Of a DNA stretch of 64,000 bases, positions 1 through 13,700 are shown in pieces. Positions within the stretch are counted from its first letter, which is position 1, and every line of letters begins with the position of its first letter. A program made the position numbers and the translations under genes. Source of the DNA: Candidatus Gottesmanbacteria bacterium (lineage in GTDB: Bacteria > Patescibacteriota > Microgenomatia > 2-02-FULL-39-11); contig JACPKY010000002.1 in NCBI GenBank assembly GCA_016186795.1, positions 26,593 to 90,592 of the forward strand. The letters run 5' to 3'. Under the pieces are notes generated by a model. That model was not told the DNA's origin. It did no database searches and saw only the letters and a list, made by a program, of their open reading frames with translations.

Positions 1-603
1 GATGATCGAAATGTCCGCATTGAGGTGGGATACGGATTGGAGCAGTATGTCACAGATGCTCGTGCCGGAGATGTTATCCGAAACGATATCGTCCCAGCAT
101 TTCAGAAAAATGATTATGAGGGTGGGACGCTTGCAGCTGTGGAAGAATTACAAGGGTATATTTCCGGTGAAATTGTCCCGCAAAATTCCGGCGTTGATTC
201 GTATTCAGAGACTGTGAGGGAAATGCAGATATTTCTCGTTGGTGGAATATTTGCATTTTTTGTGCTCTCGACATACCTTGCCGGATATTTTGGGAGAACA
301 AAAGAATCTTGGCCAGGTGCAGTTCTTGGGGGAGTATTGGGAGGATTAGGGGGATTTTTTCTCGTGTCCGCTCTTGGGATGATCATTGGAGCAGGACTGT
401 TTGGCTTTATGGGATTTTTCTTTGATTATATTCTTTCAAAAAATTGGAAGTTTCAAAAGTCTCATGGGTATCCAACGAGTTGGGGAAGTACTTGGGGAGG
501 ATTTCGAACTGGCGGGGGATCGTCTGGTGGCGGTCCGCCAGCTGGCGGAGGCGGATTTGGCGGCGGATCATCCGGCGGAGGCGGAGCAAGCGGGAGATGG
601 TAA
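1..603 (+). CDS. TPM-domain (YgcG-like) membrane protein with Gly-rich C-terminal tail; 5' end runs off the window
   Basis: Frame 1 is open from position 1. RNVRIEVGYGLEQYVTDARAGDVIRNDIVPAFQKNDYEGG matches TPM-domain conserved core. A TM segment is followed by a GGGSSGGGPPAGGGGFGGG tail typical of this family. Confidence 0.6.
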   Translation, partial: DDRNVRIEVGYGLEQYVTDARAGDVIRNDIVPAFQKNDYEGGTLAAVEELQGYISGEIVPQNSGVDSYSETVREMQIFLVGGIFAFFVLSTYLAGYFGRTKESWPGAVLGGVLGGLGGFFLVSALGMIIGAGLFGFMGFFFDYILSKNWKFQKSHGYPTSWGSTWGGFRTGGGSSGGGPPAGGGGFGGGSSGGGGASGRW

Positions 604-984
604 GAAGTGATTTTATGTGATAGATTATTTTTATGATGATATATCATGTGGCTGTTACGGCGGGTAAAAAAATAACGATTCCGATAGAAATTCGAAGAAA
701 ATTTGGATTCATGCAAAGAACAAAAGCACGAATGAAAATCCGAGGTAATGCGATTCTCATCACCCCCTATAAAGAATAATTTTAAATCTTCAAAATAAAT
801 AGCAGATATAACTTCCAAAAACCCGCAAGGTTTGTGCGCTAATGCACATGCATGCGGGTTTCGTAATTTTTCCCCTACACGGTTTATCCTTGAAATACTT
901 ACTATTCCAAAGAAAAAACGTGTAGGGGTAGGAAAGAGGAAGCACCAAAGGTGGTGCGGTGGAAATGTGCTTCCTCTTTGCCGG

Positions 985-1467
985 TTACCGTCGCTTCGGA
1001 GGGGGCAAACCAAGCTCTGTTAGTTTGACGATGTTTCCTTGGATGGAAACCCACTCGAGCTGCTCAAGTTGTTTGGCAGCAGTTCGTGCCACGTCATCAC
1101 TTTGAGCGATTGGAAGGGTATGCGTGGTGTTGCCCCGCAATTCTTTGATCATTTGGAAATGATGAACGCCCAAATGCAAGTAGTACCATCTCCAAACGCC
1201 GGTTCTCGTATTGAGAACCTCGAATTTGTACTTTTCGTAGAGCGGCAGTCCTCGGCTCAAATCTAGTAGATCTTCTGGGTGAAGATCATACTGTTTGCCG
1301 AGAATACCGAGCGCTTTCCAAAGCTCCACGTAATCCTCAACCTGTGCGACTTGCTCCGCCGGTATATAAGACTCGCCGAAAAGACTTCGGAGAATCCACC
1401 AGTTGACCCGAAACACCTTGCGGAAAAGTCGCACTTTGTACACCTCATCCACCTGTTTTTTCATCAT
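985..1467 (-). CDS. hypothetical protein (160 aa)
   Basis: Long ORF with no recognisable motif. Confidence 0.4.
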   Translation of the reverse strand: MMKKQVDEVYKVRLFRKVFRVNWWILRSLFGESYIPAEQVAQVEDYVELWKALGILGKQYDLHPEDLLDLSRGLPLYEKYKFEVLNTRTGVWRWYYLHLGVHHFQMIKELRGNTTHTLPIAQSDDVARTAAKQLEQLEWVSIQGNIVKLTELGLPPPKRR

Positions 1468-1603
1468 CAGACTCCTTTCCTTTTCACACTTGCCGAACCG
1501 TATTTCAGACGCTGATTTTCTTGTTGCCTTTTCCTCCTTTTCCTTTTATTTGTTTGTATAAGAGCAAGATTATTACCTAGAAAAATGGCTCATAGTATAC
1601 CAC

Positions 1604-1650
1604 AAAAAAACCCGCCTTGATCGATGCGAGTATCGATATAGCGGGTTTTT
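1604..1650. terminator. bidirectional rho-independent terminator hairpin (cccgc...gcggg flanked by A7/T5 runs)
   Basis: aaaaaaaCCCGCcttgatcgatgcgagtatcgatataGCGGGttttt: GC stem with a T-run on both strands. Confidence 0.55.
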
Positions 1651-1836
1651 ATGGTAACGGACCTTTTCCCTCACTGAAAATCTTTGTTATTCTCATTTCT
1701 TTGTCATCCTGATCCGCCGACTGGCGGAGAAGGATCTCATACGAGAAAAACAAAGAATTGCAGTGAGGGTAGAGAGAGGAGATTGTGTTGGAGTGGAGCA
1801 CCGTGTGGTACGGTGAAAAACGGTGCTCCTCCTGTG

Positions 1837-2094
1837 TCATGCGATTGGCTGTCCTCTCACGTCGAAATTCGTGCGATTATAGGTACCGCGATCGTAAACG
1901 TGAAAGCGGTAGTTAGTCGCATCACCCGCAAGATCTTTTTTGAACTTTGTACGAGTGTTGGTATATGCTTCTGCTGCGGATGACGCCTCGACGTCGAATG
2001 GACCCTCACAATCCGTCCAACCCGTGTTGAAAAATTGTAGCGAAACCTGGAACGGGCGCATGTGGCTATTGACGTTGGGAGGGAATGCACTCAT
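1837..2094 (-). CDS. hypothetical small protein (85 aa)
   Basis: ORF only; the terminator lies downstream on the minus strand. Confidence 0.3.
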   Translation of the reverse strand: MSAFPPNVNSHMRPFQVSLQFFNTGWTDCEGPFDVEASSAAEAYTNTRTKFKKDLAGDATNYRFHVYDRGTYNRTNFDVRGQPIA

Positions 2095-2154
2095 GTTTCA
2101 CCTCTTCTGGATTTTATAGATGCGCGTTCACGACGCGCGTTTTATTTCGGTTCC

Positions 2155-2346
2155 TCAGAGACCTTCAAGTTGCAATGCACTTGTGCCGAGGCGCGATGCA
2201 ACTTTTTTTGCGATGAGCTCTTTTGAAGCTGATGTGCCGCTGGGGTTTTCATTGAAATAGTGTCTATCAGTTTGCCCCATCAGCTGGCGAAGTCTCTCGT
2301 AGAGCTCATACGCATCCGAGCTTAACACCACAGTACTCGTGTTCAT
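2155..2346 (-). CDS. hypothetical small protein (63 aa)
   Basis: ORF only. Confidence 0.25.
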   Translation of the reverse strand: MNTSTVVLSSDAYELYERLRQLMGQTDRHYFNENPSGTSASKELIAKKVASRLGTSALQLEGL

Positions 2347-2622
2347 TTTTTCCTCCCTCTCTTTCTTTTTTAAAGGGCGAACCCTTTTCCGATACGTTGG
2401 AAGGAAGTGTAGCCCTTTTCAATTTTTTCTGCAACTAAGTTCTTGTGCTTCTGATTCGTATCTGCTATCATAGAGAAAATTTCAAGATTGATAGACTCCT
2501 GTCCCGACCGCGTCGGGATCATCAATCTCAGAATAAGGAGATACAAACTTTGCAGGCAGAGATTGTATCTCTGCCCTTTTTAATTTTTAAAATAGATTTA
2601 TTTCTTTGGATGCAAAGTGCAT

Positions 2623-2782
2623 CCCTCATTTCTTTGTTCGGCCAAAGAAATGAGGGAAAGAAAGGCCGGCCGAATGGAGATTTTCATATTTCTCTAACCT
2701 CAGATGATCGGGGAGAGCTCTCGGCTATAGTAGTCGTTTCTCCACCTTCACCATTCGGTAAGAGAAATAAATGAAAATCTCC
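2623..2782 (+). promoter_or_regulatory. structured leader region upstream of rpsB (14-bp perfect inverted repeat 2623-2636/2643-2656; 12-bp IR 2676-2687/2771-2782; tgtttactg direct repeat at 2826-2843)
   Basis: Inverted repeats read directly from the sequence. Position is immediately 5' of rpsB. Confidence 0.3.
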
Positions 2783-2847
2783 AGCGGCAGATAATAAAAA
2801 TTACAAAGAATTTTGTTTTCTGTTAACTGTTTACTGTTTACTGATTT

Positions 2848-3642
2848 ATGCGTGACGTTACACTAAAAGAACTTCTTGAAGCTGGGTGTCACTTTGGCCA
2901 CAAAGTTGACCGCTGGCATCCGAAAGCCGCGGAGTTTATCTATCAATCACGGGATGGGCTCCATATCATCGACCTTGCCAAAACCCGTGAGGGAATACTA
3001 AAAGCTGGGGAAAAAGCATTTGCGCTTGGCAAAGAAGGGAAAATTCTCCTTTTTATCGGCACCAAACGTCAGGCAAAAGGTGTTGTTGCAGAAGCTGCTC
3101 GCAACGCCCGTGCGCCATTTATGACCAATCGCTGGGTGGGTGGGTTTTTCACCAACTGGGAGGCAGTTAAGAAAAATATAGAAAAAATCAACCGCATGCG
3201 GAAAGAACGGACTGACGGCGAATGGCAAAAATTTCCAAAGCACGAAATTGTGAAATTGGAAAAAGATCTTCGCAAACTCGAGATGGTGTATGGGGGCGTT
3301 GCTGATCTATTAGCTGTTCCTGATGCTGTTTTTATTGTTGATATAAAAAAAGAAATTATTGCGTTGACAGAAGCGCAGCAACGTCACGTTTCTATTCTGG
3401 CAATTGTTGATACCAATACCGATCCAAATAACGTTGACTTCCCCATTCCGGCAAACGACGACGCAGTAGGCAGTATTTCTTTTATCGCCAAATTTATTGC
3501 AGACTGTTATGCCGAGGGTAAGCTAATATTTGAGAAAACGGAAAAGGAAGCGCGGGAAAAGACAACCGAAAAACCGGCAGAAGAAAAAGCCCTGGAAATA
3601 AAAGAAAAAAAGAAGAGAAAAACGAAAAACCTAAAAAATTGA
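2848..3642 (+). CDS. rpsB: 30S ribosomal protein S2
   Basis: MRDVTLKELLEAGCHFGHKVDRWHPKAAEFIY... is the canonical S2 N-terminus. Lys/Glu-rich tail. Confidence 0.95.
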   Translation: MRDVTLKELLEAGCHFGHKVDRWHPKAAEFIYQSRDGLHIIDLAKTREGILKAGEKAFALGKEGKILLFIGTKRQAKGVVAEAARNARAPFMTNRWVGGFFTNWEAVKKNIEKINRMRKERTDGEWQKFPKHEIVKLEKDLRKLEMVYGGVADLLAVPDAVFIVDIKKEIIALTEAQQRHVSILAIVDTNTDPNNVDFPIPANDDAVGSISFIAKFIADCYAEGKLIFEKTEKEAREKTTEKPAEEKALEIKEKKKRKTKNLKN

Positions 3643-3683
3643 CAAAGAAGAAAAGCTCCAAATCACACAAATGACAAAATACA

Positions 3684-4136
3684 ATGATCACCATTGATCA
3701 ACTCAAAAAACTTCGGGAAAAGACTTCAGCAGGAGTCATGGATTGCCGAAAAGCCCTGGAAGAGGCAAAAGGCGATGAGAAAAAGGCTGAGGAACTTATT
3801 AAACAGTGGGCGTCCCAAAAGGCCGAGAAGAAGGCTGGCCGCGAAACATCTGCAGGACTTGTCGAGTCATACGTTCATGCAGGAAAAGTGGGAGTCCTTG
3901 TTGAAGTTTTGTGCGAAACAGATTTTGTGGCGAGAACCGACAACTTCAAAAACCTTGCTCATGAGATCGCATTACAAATTGCCTCAATGAACCCGAAAGA
4001 TGTCAACTCGCTTATGAAACAGGAGTACATTCGAGATCCAAAACTGACAATTGAAAAATTGGTGAAAGAAACAATTGGGAAGTTAGGAGAAAATATTAGG
4101 ATTGGGAAATTCGCGCGGATACGGCTTGGGGAGTAA
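3684..4136 (+). CDS. tsf: elongation factor Ts, short (150 aa) form
   Basis: LKKLREKTSAGVMDCRKALEEA (UBA-like N-terminal domain) and ETDFVARTDNFKNLAHEIALQIA. Sits immediately after rpsB. Confidence 0.9.
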   Translation: MITIDQLKKLREKTSAGVMDCRKALEEAKGDEKKAEELIKQWASQKAEKKAGRETSAGLVESYVHAGKVGVLVEVLCETDFVARTDNFKNLAHEIALQIASMNPKDVNSLMKQEYIRDPKLTIEKLVKETIGKLGENIRIGKFARIRLGE

Positions 4137-5862
4137 CTGCAGCGTTTTTCGCATAGAGTCGGCTTTTGACAAACAACGGAGATCGTTCTTTCACTCCTTT
4201 TCTATTTTCTACCTCTTGGATCGTAAGGGTTCCTCCAGTAAGTTTTTCCACTTGTGATAAAAACATTCTTGCCCGGGCAACAAATCTCCGAGGGCAAAGA
4301 ATGACTCCATTTTCAATTCGCCCGGCAAGAAATTGGTTGACAAATGTTCCTGCAGATGCGGGATCTCTTCCCACTAGCCACATTCCATCCCCATCAAAGA
4401 TCTGTACCATACTCTTATTTTTGGGAGTGGTTCCAATTTCATCATGAGTTAAGCGGCGGTGATCAAACCTCACGGCATACCCAGCAGGGTCAGCTGTTAT
4501 CGGACTTCTGTATACACCAGTATCGATATCTGCAATGACTGCGATATTTGGTCTGCGAAAAACTTTGGCAAGTTGTCGAACGATGGCTCCTCCTTCTCCA
4601 ATCAAAGCATAATCATATCCTGCTGGGATGGTGATGACCGCACGTTCTTCATCCCACGCGCCACCAATATATTTTAAATATTCTGTAAGTCCCTCTCGGG
4701 TGAAAGGAATGGCAACCTCTTCAAAGTGCGGTTTATTCCCATTTGCCGCCCATCTTTGCTGTTCTACCTCAACAATGAAGTACTCAACACCAGCCTTACC
4801 TATCCGTTTTATCCATGCCTCGCTTGAGCCTTTCAGTGTTGAGTAATGACAGTGAGTAAACGATGGCGCTTCTGGTTTCGGAGGCGATGATTTGGCAGCA
4901 CCAATAGCTTCAACATCAATGTGTCGTGGAATAATAATATTTTTCTTCCCAGGGTCATCTTCTCCGAGTGCGCTTGCTAAGGAAATTGACTTTGAAGGCT
5001 CAGTTGGAATTGGCTTTTCTCCTTCTTCTCCTTCAAAAAGGTTGGTTCCTGGATCTTGAAAAGACCCAGTTGTTTCCGGCTGACCCATTTCTGCATGACC
5101 TTTTACAATGTGTTCAGTATCAAGTGCTTGGAGTGTTTCTTGGTGAAGAGATTCACCAGCCGTCTCTTGCGGAGAAGTTCGGAGAGTGATTGTTGAAAAT
5201 TCCAGAGGTGATTCTGGTTTTGCTTCGGAAGGTTGGTATGAAAGAGTGCGTAGGAAACCGAAAAAGGTATATCCTTCGCGATTTAGAACGTCGCCTTTCT
5301 TTTCGATTTTCGGCCGTTCAAATTCATCTTTTTTCCCAATGATTTTGAAAAAGTCTCCCCGTCGAATAGCATACGCTGCATATCTTCGGTTTTCTCGAAC
5401 TGGAATAATTATCCGATCGTCTTCTTTCGACACTCCAATTTCATAGATAAGTCGGTGGCGCTGAGGTTCGCGGTGCGGATGTTCTGGGTCGAAAACATAT
5501 TTTTCCGGCCAGTGATTAAAAAATTGTTCAGCAGATTCACGGACGAGTTGATCGACATTGGAAAAATTCGGCTCTACTCGGATATATTCACTGTCAGAAG
5601 GGTTTTCAGAAAAATCCATTGTGAGAGAGGTTGCAACACCTACTCCTTCACGGGCACTTCCTGGTCCTGGTAAATGTTCCGAGGCAGGATAATTCCCTCG
5701 ACGTTTCTTGGGTAACGCCCTGTTTGGATTATAGACGAGGGAGGAATCCGCAAAATTCATTTGAGGAAGCGTCTTTACAACGTAAGGAGGCTGTTGTAGA
5801 TGTTCAGGAGCACTTGGACTAGGGCGCATCACTGGATTTTGTGGAAGATTTTCAAACCCCAT
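4096..5862 (-). CDS. large uncharacterised protein (588 aa), second gene of a two-gene operon; C-terminal half contains repeated GxxG (KH-like) segments
   Basis: Uninterrupted 588-codon ORF. IGKAGV, LIGEGGAIVRQL and KLTGGTLTI look like KH-type GXXG loops. No Walker A motif. Overlaps the tsf 3' end convergently by 41 nt. Confidence 0.55.
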   Translation of the reverse strand: MGFENLPQNPVMRPSPSAPEHLQQPPYVVKTLPQMNFADSSLVYNPNRALPKKRRGNYPASEHLPGPGSAREGVGVATSLTMDFSENPSDSEYIRVEPNFSNVDQLVRESAEQFFNHWPEKYVFDPEHPHREPQRHRLIYEIGVSKEDDRIIIPVRENRRYAAYAIRRGDFFKIIGKKDEFERPKIEKKGDVLNREGYTFFGFLRTLSYQPSEAKPESPLEFSTITLRTSPQETAGESLHQETLQALDTEHIVKGHAEMGQPETTGSFQDPGTNLFEGEEGEKPIPTEPSKSISLASALGEDDPGKKNIIIPRHIDVEAIGAAKSSPPKPEAPSFTHCHYSTLKGSSEAWIKRIGKAGVEYFIVEVEQQRWAANGNKPHFEEVAIPFTREGLTEYLKYIGGAWDEERAVITIPAGYDYALIGEGGAIVRQLAKVFRRPNIAVIADIDTGVYRSPITADPAGYAVRFDHRRLTHDEIGTTPKNKSMVQIFDGDGMWLVGRDPASAGTFVNQFLAGRIENGVILCPRRFVARARMFLSQVEKLTGGTLTIQEVENRKGVKERSPLFVKSRLYAKNAAVTPQAVSARISQS

Positions 5863-5901
5863 ACTTCCAGACTAGCAAAGGTCGTACTGGCTTGTAAAGC
5901 A

Positions 5902-7785
5902 TTATCGCAGTTTCATTTTTTTTGCTTGGTCCTCTGTCAATGTAATGTATCCGAGAAACAGGTCATTGGTATCATTGTAGAACTGATTCCAGAAAGCCGT
6001 CGCCAGATTTTCATTCGGAAAAAATATTGTATCCAATCCTCCCGGCTGAACCCCTTTTGCCCTTTTACTAAAGAATCGTAGGAATGTTTCTGACCTTATA
6101 ACAAGAGGAACGTAATGTTTAAATTCCAGTGGTCCATTTCCTGCCCCAAACTGTTCATCTTGGACAAAGTACTCAAGCCCGAGATAATTTTCCAGCTCAA
6201 TAAGGGGCATGATGTAGCGACTCTCAAGTTCGGATAAATGATACGAAGAAGCCAACTCTTCAAGCCTTCTTCGATAGGGAGGAAGTGGTGCATCACTTCT
6301 CTTTTTTGGGTTTGTCACGTGTGTTTTTAATGCGCTGACAATATATCTTGCCCACGGTTCGTGTATTTGTGAGAGACTTTCTTGGTACACCAGTCCGAAT
6401 TTCGCAAGAAGAATTTTCTGCTCGATTTCAGCTAAGATTGGAAGGGCGGTAAGAAATGTTGTGAGTCTATTTGTTCTCATTTTATGGCGGACATCGGTAT
6501 AGGTAGTAAATACTCCCTGGTCAGCATAGTGTGCCAAATACAGAAGTTGACCGCCAGAAAGGCGAGTTTCTTCTAGTTTCCGATACGCATCGAAGAAATT
6601 ATCAGAGGTAAAGGGAAGGGTAGGGAGGTTAGCAAAGCGGTCAGCTGCTTTAATTCGTGCAGCTCTGCGAATGAGTCTTTTTGATGGTAACTCTTTGATC
6701 CGCTCAAGCCATCTGGCGCCGTCTTCTTTCCCGATTTTCGTGAGGGATTTAAGAATAATCCATTGTTCGCGATTTAGGTGAAGGGGCAAACTTGATCCCT
6801 CCATGAGAAGTGTCGTATCGGTTGGTATATATGATGCATCTTCTCGGTGAAAATTTGTTTCCAAATCCTCAGGAATTTCATGGGTAAATGCCAAAGCCAC
6901 ATCGTCTGCAGCTTCAGCAAGGCTTACCGGGTCATTTTCGAGATCATCCTCAATCATCGTCCAAAGATACCAGGCAGTTGCCAGATAATGGCAGTACCAG
7001 TGTTCGTGGGTTTTTCTTGTGTTGTCTCCTTTTTGTTTGAGACGGACAGCGTCACTTTCTTGGGCAAAGCGCATAAACTCTTTAACTTGTGACGTATTGA
7101 TGCCTCGATTTCGCATTCGGAAAAGAAGCTGTTGTTCAATTTCTCTGCGGAAAGTTTCTTCATTTTGGTAACCCAAAAATCGATGCCGGTCAATTGTTTT
7201 CTGAGATGACCAGGGGACTTGCGCTTCCATCATTTTTTCGGTAAAGGCTGCAAGGTGTTCGGAAACATGTGTCACATGGGCATAATCCCAGTACATATCC
7301 CTTAGAAGAAGCGTATCGAAATTCCATCCGATGAGTCGTCTCTGAGGATTATTGGTAACCAGAACTCCTTGTATGGGGAGTCCATAGCGAATATCATGCG
7401 AAGTTATTCCTGTTGATATTCGTTGTACAAAAGTATGCGGTGCGTGTTCTGGGAGAAATTCGTCACTGACGTATCTTTTAAGGGAGGGGAGACGGGAGGT
7501 AAGATGATGATTGGAGTTTATACGCAAAATATCTTTTGCCTTTGCCTCAAGTTCTGGTTTTTTTGGAAGTGGCTTATCTCGAGCTTCCAGAAGTGCCCGG
7601 AGTAAAAATGGGTCGAACCGCTCCAACCCCAGAATATCCTCGAGCGCATCACTTTGGGATGAGTGGATCCAATCGGCAATTCTTGCAACGCTTCGCTGTA
7701 CAGGATACGGTAAATACGAAAGTACTCCGGCCGTTCCTTGCAAATTGTCCGTATTTCTTCGGGGGTCATTTTCAGGAAATGCCAT
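5902..7785 (-). CDS. large uncharacterised protein (627 aa) with His/Asp-rich region suggestive of an HD-type metal-dependent phosphohydrolase fold
   Basis: Uninterrupted 627-codon ORF. HVTHVSEH ... THEHWYCHYLATAWY ... EDDLENDP ... ADDVALAFTHEIPED clusters. Sits 40 bp upstream of the 588-aa gene on the same strand. Confidence 0.55.
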   Translation of the reverse strand: MAFPENDPRRNTDNLQGTAGVLSYLPYPVQRSVARIADWIHSSQSDALEDILGLERFDPFLLRALLEARDKPLPKKPELEAKAKDILRINSNHHLTSRLPSLKRYVSDEFLPEHAPHTFVQRISTGITSHDIRYGLPIQGVLVTNNPQRRLIGWNFDTLLLRDMYWDYAHVTHVSEHLAAFTEKMMEAQVPWSSQKTIDRHRFLGYQNEETFRREIEQQLLFRMRNRGINTSQVKEFMRFAQESDAVRLKQKGDNTRKTHEHWYCHYLATAWYLWTMIEDDLENDPVSLAEAADDVALAFTHEIPEDLETNFHREDASYIPTDTTLLMEGSSLPLHLNREQWIILKSLTKIGKEDGARWLERIKELPSKRLIRRAARIKAADRFANLPTLPFTSDNFFDAYRKLEETRLSGGQLLYLAHYADQGVFTTYTDVRHKMRTNRLTTFLTALPILAEIEQKILLAKFGLVYQESLSQIHEPWARYIVSALKTHVTNPKKRSDAPLPPYRRRLEELASSYHLSELESRYIMPLIELENYLGLEYFVQDEQFGAGNGPLEFKHYVPLVIRSETFLRFFSKRAKGVQPGGLDTIFFPNENLATAFWNQFYNDTNDLFLGYITLTEDQAKKMKLR

Positions 7786-7947
7786 ACTGACGGCTTATAC
7801 CATAATAGAGAGCTTGGTGGCAACTTTTCTTGCGTGAGGGCGTGCATGGTATAATCCGGCAAACCAGTTTGCACATTTACAGAGTGAGACGAGGACGGAA
7901 TTTTTTTTCTATCGGGCGGCAAACAAAAAAGGGAAAAGGAGGCAAAT

Positions 7948-8328
7948 ATGCCAGCTCAAGATTGGGCGAGTATGACATTTTCGAATGAAAACATTCGATA
8001 CATCATACTCAATTTTCGTGTTTTGTGGGGCCTGATCATTGGAATTTATGCGATACTATTAACTGGCGGTGTCATTGGTTCAAGTCCAATTGCCAGTTGG
8101 GGCTTGAAATACCTCCAGTGGCACGGCCGAACCGTCGTAGAAAAACAAGACGACACAAAGTTGATACCGCTCAAAGCGTATCTCTTTAAAACTTTGTGGC
8201 TTCTTGTTTTTATATGGTATCGCATTCATGTTTTTCCACGGGGAGGTCGAATGGCTTTTTCGCTAACAGGAGGGCATCGGATTTGTTCTGCGCCGATGCC
8301 TTTTCTCCATGTCATTCTGAGCAAGTGA
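7948..8328 (+). CDS. small hypothetical membrane protein (126 aa)
   Basis: RBS aaggagg 7 nt upstream of ATG. Hydrophobic segments present. The C-terminal codons overlap dispersed-repeat copy A. Confidence 0.5.
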   Translation: MPAQDWASMTFSNENIRYIILNFRVLWGLIIGIYAILLTGGVIGSSPIASWGLKYLQWHGRTVVEKQDDTKLIPLKAYLFKTLWLLVFIWYRIHVFPRGGRMAFSLTGGHRICSAPMPFLHVILSK

Positions 8329-8469
8329 AGCTCGTCATCTTTTTACTCGCCCTTTTCCCCACCTCGTCTCACTCTCTCATTTTCCACTCACAATTGACAT
8401 CGGGCGATTCCCTGTTATAATCTTGTTATAACAAGGGTATTTATGAACAGTTTCTAATGGAGGTGAGGT

Positions 8470-8715
8470 ATGATTCAAAAAATTATTAAAGTAGGAAATA
8501 GCGTTGCGGTGACGTTGCCAAATACATTCATTCAAGATACTGGCTTGAAGGCTGGTGATACGATTGCGGTAGAAACGTATCCTCAAAGAAAAATGGTCCT
8601 TATCAAACCTACGTCGGAAAAGAATCAAATGAGCTTGTCTCCGGAGTTTTTCTCGTGGCTTGAGAAAATAAGCAAGAAATACGAAAAAACAATAAAAGCC
8701 TTGGCGCGTGTATGA
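8470..8715 (+). CDS. AbrB/MazE (SpoVT-AbrB) family antitoxin
   Basis: IIKVGNSVAVTLPNTFIQDTGLKAGDTIAVE swapped-hairpin motif. RBS ggaggtgagg. Overlaps the downstream toxin gene by 4 nt (ATGA). Confidence 0.75.
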   Translation: MIQKIIKVGNSVAVTLPNTFIQDTGLKAGDTIAVETYPQRKMVLIKPTSEKNQMSLSPEFFSWLEKISKKYEKTIKALARV

Positions 8716-9098
8716 TCTACCTCGAGATAGATGAAGTCATTGCGATCCATGAGAAGATGCTAGAAATTGGAGGAGGACGAGAGGGAATAAGGGATTTTAC
8801 CCTGATTCACTCGGCAGTTGCCAGGCCGAAGGCAACATTTGCTGGAAAGCTTCTGTATCCAACTATTTGGCTTCAAGCTGCAGCACTGATCCAATCACTT
8901 ATTCGCAATCATCCATTCGATGATGGCAATAAACGCACAGGATTTTTTTCTACATTACGGTTTCTGGATCTTAATGGGTACGATATCAACGCAACAGAAG
9001 CTGAGATTATTTCCTTTGCCAGAAATGTTGACGTAAAGCGTCTTCCGATTGAAGATATCGCCTCGTTTCTCAAAAAGCACGCGAAGCGGTTAAAATAG
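8712..9098 (+). CDS. doc: Doc/Fic family toxin (death-on-curing)
   Basis: Fic motif HPFDDGNKRTG. About 128 aa. Translationally coupled to the upstream antitoxin. Confidence 0.8.
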   Translation: MIYLEIDEVIAIHEKMLEIGGGREGIRDFTLIHSAVARPKATFAGKLLYPTIWLQAAALIQSLIRNHPFDDGNKRTGFFSTLRFLDLNGYDINATEAEIISFARNVDVKRLPIEDIASFLKKHAKRLK

Positions 9099-9121
9099 TG
9101 AATTTCTGGTAGAATATCTTT

Positions 9122-9358
9122 ATGGTGTGGGATTACGATGAAGCAAAACTGAAACGGACAAAAGCAGGGAAGATATTTCTTCTTGAGAGAAGTATCAATT
9201 ATGGACAGAGGAGCAGGAAGAAAATTCAACTCCGGGAAGTGAAAAAATATTGGGATAAATTACATCTTTTTCCATTACAGAAGCGTCTGTTTGAGCTTTT
9301 CATATGGGGAAAATACCGCTCCTCTCCAAAGAGCAAGAAATCATTTTGGATGAGGTAA
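9122..9358 (+). CDS. hypothetical small basic protein (78 aa)
   Basis: ORF only. Confidence 0.2.
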   Translation: MVWDYDEAKLKRTKAGKIFLLERSINYGQRSRKKIQLREVKKYWDKLHLFPLQKRLFELFIWGKYRSSPKSKKSFWMR

Positions 9359-9510
9359 GAAAACACCCATTCCTCCTTATGTCGTCATTCTTCGAGCAAG
9401 CGAAGCGAGTCGAGAAGTAGTTGATGAAATTGAGGACAACACATTCGACGGGTTGGTTTTCGGCTGATGCGCCGAATGTGTTGTCGCTCAGTCGTTCAGA
9501 GATCAAAGGG

Positions 9511-9756
9511 TTAGCTCGAAAGCCGCGCGAGCATGTTTTTTACATCTTGCGATTGGCGTGCGGGGACGCCCAACTGCTCGAGGCGCACTTTGGAAAGCCC
9601 CGCCAGTTGCTCAGGTGTTTGAGCGACTCTGTGAATTTGCGAAACTGCATGGTCGGTAAGTCCGGGTAGGAGTTTTCGGAGTTGATCATATCCAACCCGG
9701 TTATTTTTGTGCGCGGCATTTTGCTGATCGCGCACATCGAGTTGTGAACGTTGCAT
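9511..9756 (-). CDS. small hypothetical protein (81 aa) in GC-rich island, possible HhH-like DNA-binding
   Basis: Internal Met MQRSQL preceded by GGAGAG RBS (revcomp of ctctcc at 9765-9770). LLPGLTDHAVSQI resembles a helix-hairpin-helix motif. Confidence 0.45.
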   Translation of the reverse strand: MQRSQLDVRDQQNAAHKNNRVGYDQLRKLLPGLTDHAVSQIHRVAQTPEQLAGLSKVRLEQLGVPARQSQDVKNMLARLSS

Positions 9757-9791
9757 AGTTCTCTCCTTACAATTCAGACTTGGAATTTGAA

Positions 9792-10235
9792 CTACTTGCC
9801 GCCGAACGCCTGGTGGAGCGCATTGCGCGCCCCGAGGGCATCGAGCTGATTGACACCAAGTTGTTCGATTTGCTCGGCTGTAATCGCGGCGAGTGCGGTG
9901 CGCGTGTTTGCTTTTCGCCACAGCGCGCGGATTTGCGGCTCATCGAGGTATAGCGAGACGACTTTTTGCACCTCTTCAAACGGAACAATTTTCTCCGCCT
10001 TTCGAGGTGTCTCGACGGCAAAGATCGTAATTGTTTTTCCGTTCCAGGTACCCGAACCGCGTCTTCCCGAAAGCTGAATTATCCTGCCAGCGCTGTACTT
10101 TTTCCGTCCACGATATCCGGCGCTCTTCCCGAGCCATTCGGAGATGATAACGGTCGCCGATGCTCCATTGATTCGTACGATTTCGTAGTTTTGGGCATCA
10201 TCTCCTATGCCAATAATGAGTTGTTGTCCTTGCAT
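9792..10235 (-). CDS. hypothetical protein (147 aa) in GC-rich island
   Basis: RBS GGAGAG 7 nt upstream. Same strand and operon arrangement as its neighbours. Confidence 0.5.
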   Translation of the reverse strand: MQGQQLIIGIGDDAQNYEIVRINGASATVIISEWLGKSAGYRGRKKYSAGRIIQLSGRRGSGTWNGKTITIFAVETPRKAEKIVPFEEVQKVVSLYLDEPQIRALWRKANTRTALAAITAEQIEQLGVNQLDALGARNALHQAFGGK

Positions 10236-10250
10236 GATTTTCTCTCCGTG

Positions 10251-10493
10251 TCAAGCCCGGTCCGCGGCGTACACGTCCACCAAAACTTCCGCTGCACCGA
10301 ATTTGAGCTGCCCCATAAATCTCTTGAGTCGGAACTGGGTGCCGGCGCCCCAATTCGGCTCGCCAAGGAATCCGTCGCTCGTCCCCTCTATTTTCTGGAC
10401 TGTGACGACGGATCCAATTTTGATCGCCCCCGTGACCTGGACAAAGACCGCTGCCCCAGGTGATCCGAGAGCAATTAACATTGTGCCTGCCAT
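10251..10493 (-). CDS. hypothetical protein (80 aa) in GC-rich island
   Basis: Strong RBS AGGAGGAG immediately upstream of ATG. Confidence 0.5.
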   Translation of the reverse strand: MAGTMLIALGSPGAAVFVQVTGAIKIGSVVTVQKIEGTSDGFLGEPNWGAGTQFRLKRFMGQLKFGAAEVLVDVYAADRA

Positions 10494-10592
10494 GGCTCCT
10501 CCTATCTTATCGGCCAGACCCGAGTCTTCGGATCTAGCGAATTGACACTTTCGGTACGATCTGTTTAGGCTATGCTATTTTTCCTCCTTTCA

Positions 10593-10650
10593 ATTGACGG
10601 GTCAGTCATGGAAAGAAACATTCTTTCCACAATATACCCGTCAATTTTTC
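10593..10650. terminator. nested hairpin (attgacgggt ... acccgtcaat with inner ggaaaga/tctttcc) followed by T5
   Basis: 10-bp perfect inverted repeat 10593-10602/10636-10645 enclosing a 7-bp IR, followed by ttttt. Confidence 0.4.
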
Positions 10651-10659
10651 TGAACGACT

Positions 10660-10850
10660 TGTTAAAGTACTTTTTCATTCCAACACAAATCTCCACGCAG
10701 AACGTGGTTATGTAGTGGGCATGAAATTTTTCTTTATGGTCATAATCTTTTTTCCAGACAATCCCGAGCATGTCGAAGGATTATCTGGTTTTCTTAATTC
10801 CTAACGTATTCGAAACTAGGAAAAACAGGGGTAGGAAAATTAGAAAAGTG
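10660..10850. repeat. copy 1 of ~170-bp diverged repeat element; core hairpin CCACGCAGAACGTGG at 10694-10708
   Basis: Core 10681-10740 aligns with 11491-11560 (about 80% identical), with weaker similarity in flanks (ttcgaaact...aggg...agg). Confidence 0.6.
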
Positions 10851-11049
10851 ATGACGACACGATTGCGTCTGATAAATGGATATCACCACGTTCCTTTTTT
10901 CCCTTTCTTTTAGGACCCCCCCTTTGGCCCTATGTAGAAAGCCCAGTCATCCGACAAAGGCTAACTACCTACGAAACTAAATATCAAAGGATAGATGGAT
11001 AAGGACAAAATGTTGTCCAAGACCTTTTGGGAGTTGGACAACATTTCTG

Positions 11050-11244
11050 CTATTTTGGGAGTGGGAGCAGGACCCACCCAACTGCGCTTATCAGGACAAT
11101 TGTGAGTACAACGACTACGGTCATCCTGATAAGGCGACCGTGTGAGAACCATAGCCAGAACCATTTGCCGGGATCCTCACCGTACACGACTTCTCCAGGA
11201 TCCCCGGAGACATGTGCACCTTGGGTTTGTGGATGCTTTGCCAT
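11050..11244 (-). CDS. small single-pass membrane protein (64 aa)
   Basis: Internal Met preceded by GGAGGAAAT RBS. The C-terminal MTVVVVLTIVLISAVGWVLLPL segment is a TM helix. Confidence 0.45.
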   Translation of the reverse strand: MAKHPQTQGAHVSGDPGEVVYGEDPGKWFWLWFSHGRLIRMTVVVVLTIVLISAVGWVLLPLPK

Positions 11245-11469
11245 ATTTCCTCCTTGAGAATTGAGTCTTTTCACTTGATCGATATCAAGTGAAAAGATTT
11301 ATGGCGAACTTGCGAGATTTTTTTCGATCGATTTTGTGCTTCTGTCCTCCTCCTTTCGGGTAAGTGATTGAATTTCCAATCCAAGCTAGCTAGGTTGATA
11401 CAAAATGCCCAAAATATATCAACAACATCTTGTGCCAACCTAGCTTTCCCGAAGGATTTTCTATCCTTT

Positions 11470-11640
11470 GACTTGTCAAAGAGCATTTTCCATTCCACCG
11501 CAAATCACCACGCAACCGTGGTTATGAGGCAGAATGAAATGTATTTTTCATCTGATCGTATTGTCAAAATCTAATGATGTTTTTTCAGTCTCGAAATTCT
11601 TCGAAACTCAAAGAACAAGGGAAAGGTGATGAGAAGAGGT
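11470..11640. repeat. copy 2 of ~170-bp diverged repeat element; core hairpin CCACGCAACCGTGG at 11508-11521
   Basis: Aligns to copy 1. Direct orientation, about 810 bp apart. Confidence 0.6.
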
Positions 11641-11737
11641 GCCGTGAGGGCGGAGACTGCGCGGGGCGCAGAATCTATCGCGCATGCGCGACAGTCTCCG
11701 CCCTTTTGGCGTCATCACTTTACCCTCATTCTTTGGG

Positions 11738-13084
11738 TCACGGCCCGTGTCCCGGTTGCTGCCCGCTTTGGCCTGCGGCGGGCGGATGCCGGCGCTGGTT
11801 GAGCCGTTGCTCCATCTCCTCTAGCCGGTGCTCGATTTCTTCTCGAGCGATATCGGTTGCCTGCTGACCACCAAAGGTGGTGAAGATTACGACCACGAGC
11901 CAAATCGCCGCCAGTAGCAAGCAACCTGCCCACAGATATGGTAATAAAACCCATTTGTCTGTGGCTGTTACGAAAATGAGGCAACCCAAAGCCAAATACA
12001 TCGGAAACTCGATCCAGTCGGGGATTTTCTCCCGAATGAACCGAGTGTGCCGCCAAAGCTCGCGGAGAAGCCAGATCACGATCCACCCACCGATCAGAAT
12101 GACGATGCCCCAAAAGACATATGGGAGCAGATCTGCGACTTGTTTTGCCGCGTTGGCTGCGGTGCCGACTACCGGATTGATTTCTTTCGAATCGAAAGAG
12201 CCGCCGAAGCAGCTCCCCTGAACTTTCGTTTCATTCGAAAGAACCTTTAGATCAACCCAACCGGTTCCTGCCTTCAGATCGTATGAGACGCTGGTTCCGT
12301 CCGACGCAAGGTAAGTTCCCTTGCAGTCGGGAATTGGTGTTCCCGTGGGGATGGGCGTGTTGGTAGAGGGAACCGGCGTGTTGCTCGGCGGAGGCGTGTT
12401 GCTCGGCGGAGGCGTGCGCGTCGGCGGTATCGACGTTCGCGTCGGCGGGGGGGTCCGACTTGGACCGAACCGAAGGGCGTTGGCCTTAGCCTGGGCGGTT
12501 TGTTCTACGGCCGCGGCTTGTGCCTGGGCGACCATTTCGGTCGCTTTGGCGGCCACCGTCGCACCCCTCTGTACTGCGTTGGCCGTCGCCGTTGGCGGCG
12601 GCGTGGCCGTGCAACGGGGGCCTCCCTGGAGTAGGCACGGCTGGTTGGCACGAAGATTCGCCAACCGCTTGAAGTCGCCCACTGATTGGGCTATCCAAGT
12701 CGACCCATCGGCCATCGCGACCGACTCAACCCTCCCCGCGGGTTGAGAGTCGGCGACGACGCCGAGCATAATTAGCCCGCACAAGCAAAGCGCGAGAAGG
12801 CCTATAATTATTGCTACCCCCCAGCGCCCTAGGGCGTCGATGTGCCCCGTGTGCAGTAGCACATGAGGCTGCTCGGCGTGTCCTCCGTGTCCGTCGGCTG
12901 CGTGCGGTGCGGCTCGTCCGTGCTCGGCGGCGTGCTCGGGCGGCGGATCATCGTCAGTCTCTTCGTCTTCGCCACGGCGGCGGAAACCGGAGAGGAGGCG
13001 CCAGGCCAAAAAAATTACCACCGCCGCTGCGATGACCTGCCATGGAACTGGCAGGTCATTTAGGAAGGAGAGAATTCCTTCCAT
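11738..13084 (-). CDS. GC-rich polytopic membrane protein with Pro/Thr-rich tandem-repeat linker (about 448 aa)
   Basis: RBS-like GAAGGAAG lies before the second ATG (MEGILS). There are at least 5 hydrophobic helices. PPPTRTSIPPTRTPPPSNTPPPSNTPVPSTNTPIPTGTPIP linker. His/Asp-rich N-terminal tail. Confidence 0.55.
   Translation of the reverse strand: MEGILSFLNDLPVPWQVIAAAVVIFLAWRLLSGFRRRGEDEETDDDPPPEHAAEHGRAAPHAADGHGGHAEQPHVLLHTGHIDALGRWGVAIIIGLLALCLCGLIMLGVVADSQPAGRVESVAMADGSTWIAQSVGDFKRLANLRANQPCLLQGGPRCTATPPPTATANAVQRGATVAAKATEMVAQAQAAAVEQTAQAKANALRFGPSRTPPPTRTSIPPTRTPPPSNTPPPSNTPVPSTNTPIPTGTPIPDCKGTYLASDGTSVSYDLKAGTGWVDLKVLSNETKVQGSCFGGSFDSKEINPVVGTAANAAKQVADLLPYVFWGIVILIGGWIVIWLLRELWRHTRFIREKIPDWIEFPMYLALGCLIFVTATDKWVLLPYLWAGCLLLAAIWLVVVIFTTFGGQQATDIAREEIEHRLEEMEQRLNQRRHPPAAGQSGQQPGHGP
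12350..12450. repeat. degenerate 18-21-bp tandem repeats (ggcgtgttgctcggcggag x about 5) encoding PPPSNTP repeats on the minus strand
   Basis: Direct reading: ggcgtgttgctcggcggag ggcgtgttgctcggcggag gcgtgcgcgtcggcgg... Confidence 0.7.
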
Positions 13085-13269
13085 GGTTTTTCTTCCTTCT
13101 GACCCGCACTGGGTCATGCCTCTTTCGAGGATGACGGGGTGCGAATCACTTTACTTCTTTTTTTGATTTTGATAGACGTACTGCGCGACGGAGGCAAGTA
13201 TTTTGTCCCCATGGAGCAGTACTCTATCATAGATTAAATAATTTTTATCACCTTTCCCTATGTTAATGT

Positions 13270-13296
13270 GCAAAAAAAACTCCCTTGTGGGGAGTT
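13270..13296 (-). terminator. rho-independent terminator downstream of the phd-relE operon
   Basis: The minus strand reads cacacgaaCTCCCcacaaGGGAGtttttttt. Confidence 0.5.
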
Positions 13297-13448
13297 CGTG
13301 TGCGCAATGTTTCCTTATTCCTACGCTCCCGAACTCCTCGTTCGGATAACAAAAGAAATAGTAAGGATGATATTGGCGTCTTTGACAATGTTCATCGTAT
13401 AGAGAGAGTTTATATCATATCCTATAGTTGCGTGTCAAGTACGGGAAT

Positions 13449-13700
13449 CTACTTGTAGATTTCTCTGCGGTGGCCAATAGAGAGAATAATTATTGTGTTT
13501 CCCTTTATATCAAAGACTACTCGATAATCTCCTATGCGGTATCTATACATACCAATATCTGAATTTATAAGTTTTTCAGCAAAAAATAGAGGAGCCTTTG
13601 AGGAAGCAAAAAATTCGAGCTTATCGCTTATTCGTCTTTGGGTAGGTTTAGGAAGTCTTCGGAATTCTTTGAGCGAATGAGAATTGAATTCTATGACCAT
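13449..13700 (-). CDS. relE: RelE/ParE family toxin
   Basis: About 83 aa. YRIGDYRVVFDIKGNTIIILSIGHRREIY is a typical RelE/ParE C-terminus. Lies immediately downstream of the antitoxin. Confidence 0.8.
   Translation of the reverse strand: MVIEFNSHSLKEFRRLPKPTQRRISDKLEFFASSKAPLFFAEKLINSDIGMYRYRIGDYRVVFDIKGNTIIILSIGHRREIYK

Follow-up and report, generated by a model that had tools for sequence, protein, structure and literature searches.

A candidate divergent RelA/SpoT-type hydrolase gene and a neighbouring orphan gene beside rpsB-tsf in Candidatus Gottesmanbacteria

Do two large adjacent genes that converge on rpsB and tsf belong to one accessory system, or are they neighbours of separate origin, and what might each of them encode? 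The genes, here called A (HYW55_01230) and B (HYW55_01225), lie on the minus strand of a 64,000-nucleotide stretch of a Candidatus Gottesmanbacteria contig (JACPKY010000002.1; the whole stretch is referred to as the window; Table 1). A sequence-only reading had taken them for an operon inserted after rpsB-tsf, consisting of an HD-type phosphohydrolase (A) and a KH-like protein (B), with a possible role in defence. The best reading, which we hold with moderate confidence, is that they are unrelated, probably co-transcribed genes, A a divergent RelA/SpoT-homologue (RSH)-type hydrolase and B an orphan, and that they do not form a conserved system.

Table 1. Features of the A-B region and its surroundings (window coordinates).
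Feature	Coordinates	Strand	Description	Source
rpsB	2848-3642	+	downstream of A-B, convergent; conserved neighbour of the A family	tblastn across loci, gene tables
tsf	3684-4136	+	short, 150 aa; downstream of A-B, convergent; conserved neighbour of the A family	Pfam EF_TS PF00889, tblastn across loci, gene tables
B-tsf 3′ overlap (convergent genes)	4096..4136		41 nt	coordinates, sequence
Gene B (HYW55_01225)	4096..5862	-	588 aa, ATG start	ORF listing
B residues 336-588	4099..4857	-	predicted alpha/beta region	AF2 single-sequence model
B residues 226-335	4858..5187	-	Glu/Pro/Gly-rich linker, no predicted secondary structure	DSSP, composition
B residues 1-100	5563-5862	-	resembles the linker, no predicted secondary structure	
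A-B spacer	5863..5901	-	39 nt, no terminator-like hairpin	sequence, terminator scan
Gene A (HYW55_01230)	5902..7785	-	627 aa, ATG start	ORF listing
A C-terminal ~219 residues	5905..6561	-	family-specific, PWA and PGG blocks	alignment A2
A residues 254-408	6562..7026	-	candidate RSH-type HD (HD_4-like) domain	hhalign, HMMs, motif table
Glu303 codon GAA	6877..6879	-	stands in place of the invariant, Mn2+-binding Asp of the HD3 His-Asp pair	alignment
A N-terminal ~253 residues	7027..7785	-	family-conserved, e.g., RFLG block	alignment A2
Small membrane-protein-like ORF	7948..8328	+	divergent from A	blastp, blastn
MazE+Doc TA module	8470-9098		confirmed	
ParE	13449-13700		confirmed	
Phd-like ORF beside ParE	13701-13982		named from its sequence only	

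Coding Signal and Neighbourhood

The ORF listing bore out two minus-strand ORFs of the lengths first reported, with a spacer one nucleotide shorter than the 40 first given. Both ORFs are real and have native-like codon usage: at the stop-codon frequency of the window, the probability of such an open frame arising by chance is ~1e-11 for A and ~6e-11 for B; in frame 0, codon usage gives log-odds of 0.244 (A) and 0.274 (B) per codon, with the remaining two frames negative (22 reference genes have a mean of 0.345 ± 0.066 and a minimum of 0.251); and GC3 is 0.38 in A and 0.33 in B (0.365 in the reference set). No opposite-strand ORF exceeds 93 aa within B or 108 aa within A. Independent assemblies of SRR12113420 and SRR12113383 contain the identical DNA, so the A-B region is not a one-off assembly artefact. 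As the sequence-only reading had it, neither protein can be assigned to a known family: Pfam, NCBIfam, and PADLOC gave none for either at E ≤ 1, a PHROGs search of both returned only noise, and neither is clearly homologous to a ubiquitous housekeeping enzyme.

The TA modules noticed nearby were found again (MazE+Doc, and ParE), and they, like a foreign high-GC island, are no more than 6 kb from A-B. The small ORF divergent from A has a weak coding score (0.074); it is syntenic in locus L001 (45% identity) and weakly so in L006.

Distribution and Synteny of the A Family

Searching 5.8e9 proteins with A returned two relatives besides the self match, and genome and metagenome scans added five further loci. 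The family (alignment A2) comprises 8 sequences of 570-710 aa in 8 distinct gene contexts, all Patescibacteria-like. The tsf gene adjoins the A-family gene in L001-L009 (the L010 contig stops inside A), and rpsB is present in every locus whose contig extends that far. Since this synteny is kept even though rpsB is only 57-77% identical across the lineages, it argues for vertical inheritance and not for island-borne spread. The A-rpsB-tsf linkage is a conserved ancestral arrangement, and the family is so far known only from a few Patescibacteria, always beside these two genes. The proposed insertion after rpsB-tsf is not supported for A; B alone sits in an insertion-like variable slot (between A and tsf). 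In the closest relative (L001) this slot holds a hydrolase-only RSH-like gene (L001:2760-5042, 760 aa, HD_4 E 1e-28, and a weak TGS match), and in L002-L008 it is empty.

B accompanies A in one of eight contexts, and the pair is thus not a conserved system, contrary to the operon first proposed. Co-transcription of A and B in the window is plausible and probable. Their shared strand, the short spacer without a terminator, the TA modules and high-GC island close by, and the silence of the standard libraries on both proteins would also fit an accessory, defence, or anti-phage system of two genes, in which A would be the effector (an HD nuclease or a phosphohydrolase) and B an RNA-binding sensor. 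We regard such a system as very improbable, because PADLOC and PHROGs offer no match, A travels with rpsB-tsf across lineages and mostly lacks B, no viral relatives and no flanking repeats were found, and the composition looks native.

A Candidate HD Domain in Gene A

Standard HMM searches detected HD_4 or HD in none of the A-family members, and the A2 profile had no match among PDB sequences. With hhalign, A2 aligned to an alignment of 120 HD_4 proteins over residues 254-408 with a score of 41.4 (P 1.1e-4, probability 56%). Controls were scored in -M 50 mode, in which the unshuffled alignment scores 36.1: column shuffles (n = 61) averaged 15.0 (sd 2.5, maximum 24.8), the reversed alignment scored 15.3, and motif-preserving shuffles of 8-column blocks (n = 44) reached at most 32.3. 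At HD_4 columns conserved to at least 85%, the A-family consensus residue is identical in 23 of 53, against 6 of 80 among the remaining aligned columns, and the 23 include every HD1-HD6 residue. Using unfiltered HMMs, 117 of the 120 HD_4 proteins outscored all 60 window decoys and 120 shuffles against the A-family HMM, and 7/8 A-family members ranked above all decoys against the HD_4 HMM; the window's A is the lowest-scoring member (only 2.0 bits, below one decoy).

All six motifs (as defined in PMC9293644 and PMC11554896) are present in order in A: R257 (HD1), H266 (HD2), H302-E303 (HD3), E306-D307 (HD4), D382-R383 (HD5), and N386 (HD6), followed by T389. The family keeps spacings of +9 (HD1-HD2), +4 (HD3-HD4), and +4 (HD5-HD6), and a Thr at N+3 in seven of the eight members (Ser in P0002); HD2-to-HD3 is +35/36 vs. 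+24 in known RSHs, and HD4-to-HD5 is +75 to +129 vs. ~+60. The four segments that had suggested an HD-type phosphohydrolase are all in the protein, at residues 170-177 (HVTHVSEH), 259-268 (THEHWYCHYL), 279-286 (EDDLENDP), and 293-303 (ADDVALAFTHE). The domain itself gained support, and two of these segments hold catalytic motifs of the RelA/SpoT-type HD domain (THEHWYCHYL contains HD1/HD2, ADDVALAFTHE contains HD3); HVTHVSEH is unconserved among relatives.

These comparisons show remote homology to HD_4 and point to the central region (~254-408) being a very divergent RSH (HD_4) hydrolase domain. The predicted structure of A is too poor to use (pLDDT 36) and its Foldseek matches are noise (Rel ranks 21st, E = 3), so they give no independent fold evidence for the domain; the model, at low confidence, makes the region entirely helical. 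The HMMER result, the hhalign probability, and the state of the model would also suit a coincidental resemblance, in which short acidic and His motifs recur in a helical protein of another fold, or of another HD-superfamily clade with another chemistry. We think this quite doubtful, since the six motifs follow the RSH order and are locally spaced much as in RSHs, identities are strongly enriched at the conserved HD_4 columns, the real hhalign score exceeds that of shuffles preserving the motifs, and decoys are separated in both HMM search directions.

On this reading, A consists of a central ~155-residue all-helical domain flanked by family-specific regions. The N-terminal region has no Pfam match, no significant match to RSH regions, and no detectable homologue; the C-terminal region shows no similarity to RSH synthetase, TGS, or ACT (hhalign P 0.27-0.47).

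Proposed Activity and the His-Glu Substitution

We infer both the substrate and the catalysis of A purely from its likeness to SpoT, Rel, and small alarmone hydrolases (SAHs), enzymes that degrade (p)ppGpp, a starvation signal of bacteria. The family most likely binds Mn2+ via His266, His302, Asp/Glu303, and Asp382, and would then strip the 3′-pyrophosphate from a (p)ppGpp- or (p)ppApp-like nucleotide; NADPH and other 3′-phosphorylated nucleotides are further substrates of HD_4-type enzymes (PMC11554896, PMC9765508). Its gene would have been passed down vertically beside rpsB-tsf in a small Patescibacteria clade.

The window's copy departs from this pattern at HD3. All seven relatives have the Asp, and His-Glu is found in the window's copy alone (codon context CAT GAA ATT CCT GAG GAT, with the same DNA in two other assemblies), alongside two changes in the loop between HD1 and HD2, G260H and Y263W. 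These three changes may modify or reduce its activity. The 2H2D residues are described as invariant in RSH hydrolases (PMC11554896), and a copy that lacks the invariant Asp of this Mn2+ site could be inactive. It might then be a catalytically dead pseudo-enzyme with a structural or regulatory role, possibly on the ribosome given the rpsB-tsf linkage; RelA, which retains an inactive HD domain (PMC3153485), is a precedent, and the copy's lowest family score against the HD_4 HMM would agree. However, Asp to Glu preserves the carboxylate, the remaining HD1-HD6 residues are intact, and the ORF is unbroken with normal codon usage; we consider a dead enzyme unlikely, though its probability is not negligible, and favour a divergent hydrolase.

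Gene B

B matched only itself among 5.8e9 proteins (word-indexed search) and among 1.84e9 representatives (exhaustive phmmer), and neither tblastn nor blastn found it in the related loci at the protein or DNA level; it is present on five contigs. On the best reading it is a recent orphan gene specific to this lineage, which either arrived in the variable A-tsf slot or originated there. Its missing homologues, the ~35-40% of the protein that looks disordered in the model, the 3′ end running 41 nt into tsf, and the poor Shine-Dalgarno spacing (GGAAG 1 nt upstream of the ATG) could speak for a nonfunctional B, a decaying or spurious long ORF such as an insertion remnant. This is improbable in our view, since a 588-codon frame is hardly expected by chance, the frame-0 coding signal persists in all four segments of the gene (0.155-0.394) with the other frames negative, and the whole-gene value falls among those of bona fide genes in the window.

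The AF2 single-sequence model of B has a mean pLDDT of 35.6, and only residues ~380-445 reach 50-68; the disorder of the linker is likewise a prediction of this low-confidence model. The three GxxG segments that had prompted the KH proposal (GEEG278, GKAG355, and GEGG422) are present, and there is no P-loop, as noted earlier. Of the three, GEGG422 alone has a predicted beta-alpha-alpha-beta setting, within an alpha-beta-beta-alpha-GxxG-alpha-beta arrangement (residues ~389-444, DNA about 4531-4698). In a phmmer search of the PDB, residues 335-439 aligned weakly with HEBP1 (E 0.0035-0.07, partly via a His-tag). Neither the KH-like nor the SOUL-like hint is significant, and B was not established as a KH protein. 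B looks like a soluble protein that combines a pair of folded modules with long disordered linkers, with a C-terminal alpha/beta module that is most likely ligand- or nucleic-acid-binding, which is as far as we infer a role for it.

Comparison with Known Systems

Similar to type II KH domains (Era, NusA, and ribosomal protein S3), GEGG422-425 of B lies between predicted helices with strands flanking, but B has no KH profile match (E ≤ 1) and no KH protein among its PDB matches (E ≤ 10), and the model confidence at this segment is only 50-68. The alignment with SOUL/HEBP proteins (HEBP1: 2gov, 4a1m) is repeatable and includes the YIGG and (I/M)T(I/V)P blocks; however, E reaches 0.0035-0.01 only when the His-tag of the target pairs with THCHY of B (0.07-0.4 for untagged targets), Pfam SOUL is not matched, and only half of the SOUL domain is covered.

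The L001 slot gene occupies the same position as B, in the same orientation between the A-family gene and tsf, and is unrelated to B. It has HD_4-type catalytic motifs in common with A, to which it is related at the profile level only; unlike A, it is easy to identify with Pfam and with Rel/SpoT structures. SAHs can serve as type IV antitoxins against toxic small alarmone synthetases (PMC7229694, PMC9293644), and with an RSH-superfamily gene beside A in L001 and abundant TA modules nearby, A might be imagined as an alarmone-hydrolase antitoxin, with the adjacent gene as its cognate toxin (B in the window, the RSH-like one in L001). We give this very little credence: B has neither a RelA_SpoT synthetase signature nor RSH similarity, the L001 neighbour matches Rel/SpoT across the hydrolase domain only and is therefore not a synthetase toxin, and a partner gene is missing altogether from most A-family loci.

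The nearest likeness of A is to the RSH hydrolases (HD_4 PF13328; SpoT, Rel, and the SAHs RelH, PaSAH, and Mesh1). A differs from them in falling under the Pfam HD_4/HD detection limit, in its inserts (~12 residues in HD2-HD3 and 15-70 residues in HD4-HD5), and in terminal regions that match no SYNTH, TGS, or ACT; A-family proteins have Tyr in place of the Pro that follows HD2 and F/L-x-N-L-x-T for the LHNMRT block, and the window's copy has His-Glu at HD3. Nevertheless, A shares the six ordered motifs with these enzymes, and its HD1-HD2, HD3-HD4, and HD5-HD6 spacings and the Thr at N+3 are the same as in long RSHs such as RelSeq (PMC9293644).

The A and B Genes

The two minus-strand reading frames of Candidatus Gottesmanbacteria that a sequence-only reading had picked out beside rpsB-tsf are located where it placed them, each with an ATG start: A (HYW55_01230) and, downstream of it, B (HYW55_01225; the coordinates of all features are collected in the table below). 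They are separated by a spacer of 39 nt (5863-5901), in which no terminator-like hairpin was found, and the last 41 nt of B overlap the 3′ end of tsf. The probability of frames staying open by chance is about 1e-11 to 6e-11 for A and B, and their codon log-odds are positive in frame 0 (A 0.244, B 0.274) and negative in the other frames; the codon-usage reference, 22 long genes of the window, averages 0.345 ± 0.066, the lowest value being 0.251. A has a GC3 of 0.38 and B of 0.33, against 0.365 in the reference genes. Two other sequencing runs (SRR12113420 and SRR12113383) yielded the same DNA on assembly, with 0 mismatches over 6.25 kb; other assemblies are 100% identical, leaving no population polymorphism to use at this locus. 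Both look like real, native genes, and B is probably an orphan passenger that is co-transcribed with A. Neither protein has a match at E ≤ 1 in Pfam, NCBIfam, or PADLOC, a PHROGs scan of the two returned only noise, and no Rfam elements were found in window positions 1-16000.

Features of the window (nucleotide positions) and of protein A (residues)
Feature	Position	GC3	Remarks
TPM-phosphatase gene fragment	25-603
160-aa ORF	985-1467	0.55	in the stretch between TPM and rpsB
rpsB	2848-3642
tsf	3684-4136		convergent to B
B	4096-5862(-)	0.33	588 aa
A	5902-7785(-)	0.38	627 aa
16-nt inverted repeat	7788-7803 / 7846-7861		88% complementary; just upstream of the A ATG
Small membrane-protein-like ORF	7948-8328		divergent from A; weak coding score (0.074)
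25-nt inverted repeat	8138-8214		88% complementary, 27-nt loop; within ORF 7948-8328
Sigma-70 consensus promoter	8394-8421(+)		TTGACA-16 nt-TATAAT with extended TG; 12/12 matches
Palindrome	8417-8440		overlaps the promoter
MazE-Doc operon	8470-9098
High-GC island	9500-13200		GC up to 0.63, about 0.44 around
147-aa ORF	9792-10235	0.57	no Pfam match
459-aa ORF	11738-13117	0.65	Pro/Ala-rich, membrane-protein-like; no Pfam match
Coupling-protein-like ATPase	14042-16432(-)		796 aa; TrwB_AAD_bind, TraG-D_C
HD1 of A	R257		invariant in 8/8 members; aligns to a 100%-conserved HD_4 Arg
HD2 of A	H266		invariant; +9 from R257
HD3 of A	H302-E303 (window's copy)		His-Asp in 7/7 relatives
HD4 of A	E306-D307		invariant
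HD5/HD6 of A	K379, A381, D382, R383, N386		invariant
Position of RelSeq T151 in A	T389		Ser in the relative P0002

A Divergent Candidate RSH Hydrolase Domain in A

In the alignment of the eight A-family sequences, which come from eight distinct contexts (27-56% identity to the window's protein), conservation is densest at residues ~254-408, where the conserved blocks are, in order, R-x-T-G-E-x-Y-Y-C-H-Y-L, x-H-D-I-x-E-D-L, K-x-A-D-R-x-x-N-L-x-T, and R-K-L-x-E-T. These correspond one-to-one with the six hydrolase motifs of RelA/SpoT homologues (RSH): Arg (HD1), His (HD2), His-Asp (HD3), Glu-Asp (HD4), Asp-Arg/Lys (HD5), and Asn (HD6) (PMC9293644). In RSH hydrolases Mn2+ is bound by HD2, HD3, and HD5, and the HD1 Arg (R44 in RelSeq) stacks on the base (PMC9293644); the metal ligands form an invariant 2H2D set, and the ED diad is also invariant (PMC11554896). 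The defining spacings are about 9-10 residues from HD1 to HD2, 3-4 from HD3 to HD4, and four from HD5 to the HD6 Asn (K-x-A-D-R-x-x-N).

We compared the family alignment with that of 120 proteins of the RSH hydrolase domain HD_4 (PF13328) using hhalign, which gave a single collinear alignment over A residues 254-408 (score 41.4, P 1.1e-4, 56% probability). For the controls we used the sub-alignment of the domain, which scores 36.1 unshuffled: shuffling by column gave a mean of 15.0 (sd 2.5, maximum 24.8, n = 61), shuffling by 8-column block, so that motifs are preserved, a mean of 22.4 (maximum 32.3, n = 44), and reversing the alignment 15.3. The A family has the HD_4 consensus residue in 23 of the 53 columns conserved at ≥85%, versus 6 of the 80 other aligned columns. 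With HMMER filters off, 117 of the 120 HD_4 proteins outscored every decoy and shuffle (60 window-derived and 120 shuffled sequences) against an A-family HMM (HD_4 median 8.9 bits, decoy maximum 4.1); in the reverse test with an HD_4 HMM, seven of the eight A-family members ranked over all decoys. The window's copy scored lowest with this home-made HMM, at 2.0 bits (relatives, 4.4-16.3 bits).

Standard searches pass over the domain. None of the eight members reaches the curated Pfam HD_4 threshold (27.2 bits) or has an HD_4/HD match at E ≤ 10, Pfam scans of all eight gave nothing usable, and phmmer and hmmsearch against PDB sequences returned nothing for A. The HD fold expected of such a domain has ten helices, with the motifs around a single cavity. 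An AF2 model of A built from three sequences has a pLDDT of 36, the HD region being helical in that poor model, and Foldseek against the PDB with the low-confidence models of A and B produced only noise. The resemblance to RSH motifs might also be coincidental, which we consider improbable, since the hhalign score exceeds all shuffle controls and the decoys are separated in both directions. Support from profile-profile comparison for remote homology between A and HD_4 is moderate, and residues ~254-408 of A quite probably form an RSH-type HD domain, an assignment that is well supported, though not by fold. The HD-type hydrolase that the sequence-only reading had suspected in A is supported by the same tests, with the HD motifs in order.

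The ~250 N-terminal and ~220 C-terminal residues flanking this domain are conserved within the A family and match nothing, RSH synthetase and TGS regions included; degenerate SYNTH or TGS domains were ruled out by this lack of similarity.

The window's copy departs from the rest of the family. Only here is the Asp of the His-Asp dyad replaced by Glu (Glu303, codon GAA), so that the HD3 feature is found in the A family and not in this member; this copy also has His where R-x-T-G-E has its conserved Gly, and Trp for Tyr, the latter likewise in P0002. Activity may persist, because the change from Asp to Glu retains the carboxylate; activity could well be altered or reduced, because position 303 is among the four invariant Mn2+ ligands. 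That A is a dead pseudo-enzyme in this genome, a reading on which the same two points bear, seems rather unlikely to us.

Distribution and Neighborhood of the A Family

Only two relatives of A were found among 5.8 billion clustered proteins, P0002 (56% identity) and P0003 (36%); pattern scans with the A alignment added five more loci, two in genomes (L006 and L007) and three in metagenomes (L008-L010), and no relatives of A or B were found on the viral contigs scanned. The gene adjoins tsf in L001-L009 (the L010 contig breaks off inside the A-family gene), and rpsB is seen wherever the contig reaches far enough. In L002-L008 the A-family gene and tsf are immediate, convergent neighbors, separated by a few to about 250 nt; in L009 the A-family gene lies on the far side of rpsB, past a 207-aa ORF resembling thymidylate kinase. 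Since rpsB is only 57-77% and tsf 65-83% identical across these loci, the linkage has survived considerable divergence. We conclude that A is inherited vertically and confined to its clade. L001, and weakly L006, also keep the small membrane-protein-like ORF that diverges from A. L007 (CAZFNL010000037.1) is titled "uncultured Gammaproteobacteria bacterium" and carries the A-family/tsf/rpsB block as in the Patescibacteria loci (tsf 72% and rpsB 60% identical to the window); its taxon label or binning is probably wrong.

A gene lies between A and tsf in two loci only, the window (B) and the sister locus L001, its closest relative. The flanks of these two align well (rpsB-tsf 73% nucleotide identity, A 66%), and the slot in L001 holds a 760-aa protein unrelated to B, with a clear HD_4 match (E 1e-28) and a weak TGS match. 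The content of this slot varies among the loci, and only in the window's lineage is it B; the idea of a conserved A-B pair falls away with this, as B matches nothing in the related loci. A defence system made up of A and B, one candidate function offered by the sequence-only reading, together with a DefenseFinder/PADLOC scan as its check, is highly improbable: PADLOC-DB returned 0 families at E ≤ 1 for either protein, with no component matched, A and B do not co-occur, and there is no mobility signature. We see very little chance, too, that an RSH-like A and its neighbor are a toxSAS-SAH-like toxin-antitoxin pair, as an adjacent small alarmone synthetase (RelA_SpoT, PF04607) is absent, B has neither a Pfam match nor similarity to RSH alignments, and the partner gene is missing from most A-family loci.

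The 760-aa protein (L001:2760-5042) is a long RSH-like protein in its own right. It matches Rel/SpoT crystal structures over the hydrolase domain only (residues ~53-290), and no RelA_SpoT synthetase domain was detected; it may represent a long RSH that is hydrolase-only, from a Gottesmanbacteria relative.

B, an Orphan Protein

No homologue of B was found among the 5.8 billion clustered proteins, an exhaustive phmmer search, made without a word prefilter against 1.84 billion representatives, returned only B itself, and none of the related loci has a match to its DNA or protein, whatever the frame. Repeats at its boundaries are only chance-level ones, with no insertion signatures; internal repeats are lacking, as is similarity to A or to the RSH-like protein of L001. 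A decayed or frameshifted copy of the latter's gene was rejected, there being no protein, six-frame, or DNA similarity.

The single-sequence AF2 model of B has a mean pLDDT of 35.6, and only residues ~380-445 reach 50-68. In this low-confidence model, no structure is predicted for the Pro/Glu/Gly-rich stretches ~1-100 and ~226-335, and two alpha/beta modules appear, the smaller spanning ~100-207 and the larger ~349-551. The best-modeled part (pLDDT 50-68) has a helix (389-398), two strands (402-404 and 409-412), a helix (418-421), GEGG (422-425), a helix (426-434), and a strand (441-444), an order of elements (~389-444) that we take to be type II KH topology. The three GxxG segments and the missing P-loop reported for B from its sequence are as described; no Pfam KH match was obtained, and searches of PDB sequences yielded no KH chains. 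The only recurring weak match among PDB sequences is HEBP1/SOUL (E 0.0035-0.01), which weakens to E 0.07-0.4 when THCHY of B is not aligned to the His-tag of the target. We rejected B as a SOUL/HEBP protein, as the match covers half a domain (of ~190 residues), is in part a His-tag artefact, and has no Pfam counterpart.

An orphan of this kind might be a non-functional ORF, a reading to which, given the open frame and codon log-odds of B, we attach little credence. We tentatively, and with low confidence, regard B as a soluble, lineage-specific protein of recent origin whose C-terminal module would bind a ligand or nucleic acid.

Surroundings of the Locus

By eye, TTGCCA-18 nt-TATAAG is seen upstream of A, within 7786-7947; its end is 8 nt from the ATG, and a Shine-Dalgarno sequence is lacking; together with the 16-nt inverted repeat there, this could mean a leaderless or near-leaderless A mRNA with an operator. 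Beyond the divergent ORF, the perfect sigma-70 consensus promoter precedes the MazE-Doc operon by about 50 nt, and the palindrome overlapping it could be an autoregulation operator. The high-GC island sits between the MazE-Doc pair and a ParE/Phd-like pair, and is probably foreign DNA; a VirD4/TrwB-type coupling-protein-like ATPase adjoins the ParE/Phd-like module.

On the other side, EF-Ts (tsf) has only 150-173 aa, in the window as in every related locus, and its match to Pfam EF_TS is confined to profile positions 1-76 of 204; this looks like a truncated form characteristic of the clade. The ~2.2 kb between the TPM-phosphatase gene fragment and rpsB hold only short ORFs with no Pfam matches, and in L002-L004 TPM is followed directly by rpsB; window positions 985-2800 may be another variable slot.

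Discussion

On the likeliest reading, the A family would be a clade-specific, SpoT-like, Mn2+-dependent 3′-pyrophosphohydrolase for (p)ppGpp-type nucleotides, with extra domains and a gene kept beside rpsB-tsf, a stable linkage that hints at a translation-related role. A more far-reaching reading, which we hold to be quite unlikely, makes the family an undescribed clade-specific branch of RSH hydrolases, its HD domain flanked by two novel domains and genomically locked to rpsB-tsf, whose substrate may be other than the cell's own (p)ppGpp: host-derived alarmones (given an episymbiotic lifestyle), 3′-pyrophosphorylated tRNA, or ribosome-bound nucleotides. B would then have been recruited to the same transcript as a de novo or very fast-evolving gene, and might compensate for the His-Glu variant of A or modulate it.

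With A as a SpoT-like hydrolase, the finding would be of interest to alarmone metabolism and to the biology of Patescibacteria (CPR), in which alarmone metabolism is poorly charted: a full-text search of the CPR literature on ppGpp and the stringent response found no paper centred on it, and CPR is not mentioned in the main text of the toxSAS/RSH paper (PMC7229694). Since so divergent an HD domain escapes the HMMs of RSH surveys and annotation, lineages with an A-type gene would be scored as being without a corresponding gene. Recognition of the domain turns a "hypothetical protein" into a directly testable enzyme with named putative catalytic residues, and the natural change from Asp to Glu at a supposedly invariant Mn2+ ligand provides a ready structure-function comparison with the His-Asp orthologues. 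B is, on present evidence, an example of orphan genes filling variable slots in streamlined genomes, and nothing more.

Compared with known RSH hydrolases, the A family has an HD1-HD2 spacing (+9) like that of long RSHs, whereas small alarmone hydrolases have an insertion there (PMC9293644); its HD2-HD3 spacing is +35/36 versus +24, and its HD4-HD5 spacing +75 to +129 versus about +60. The A/B locus is not a new kind of system; A would carry a known enzyme domain in a novel, strongly diverged form, with a new architecture and a narrow distribution.
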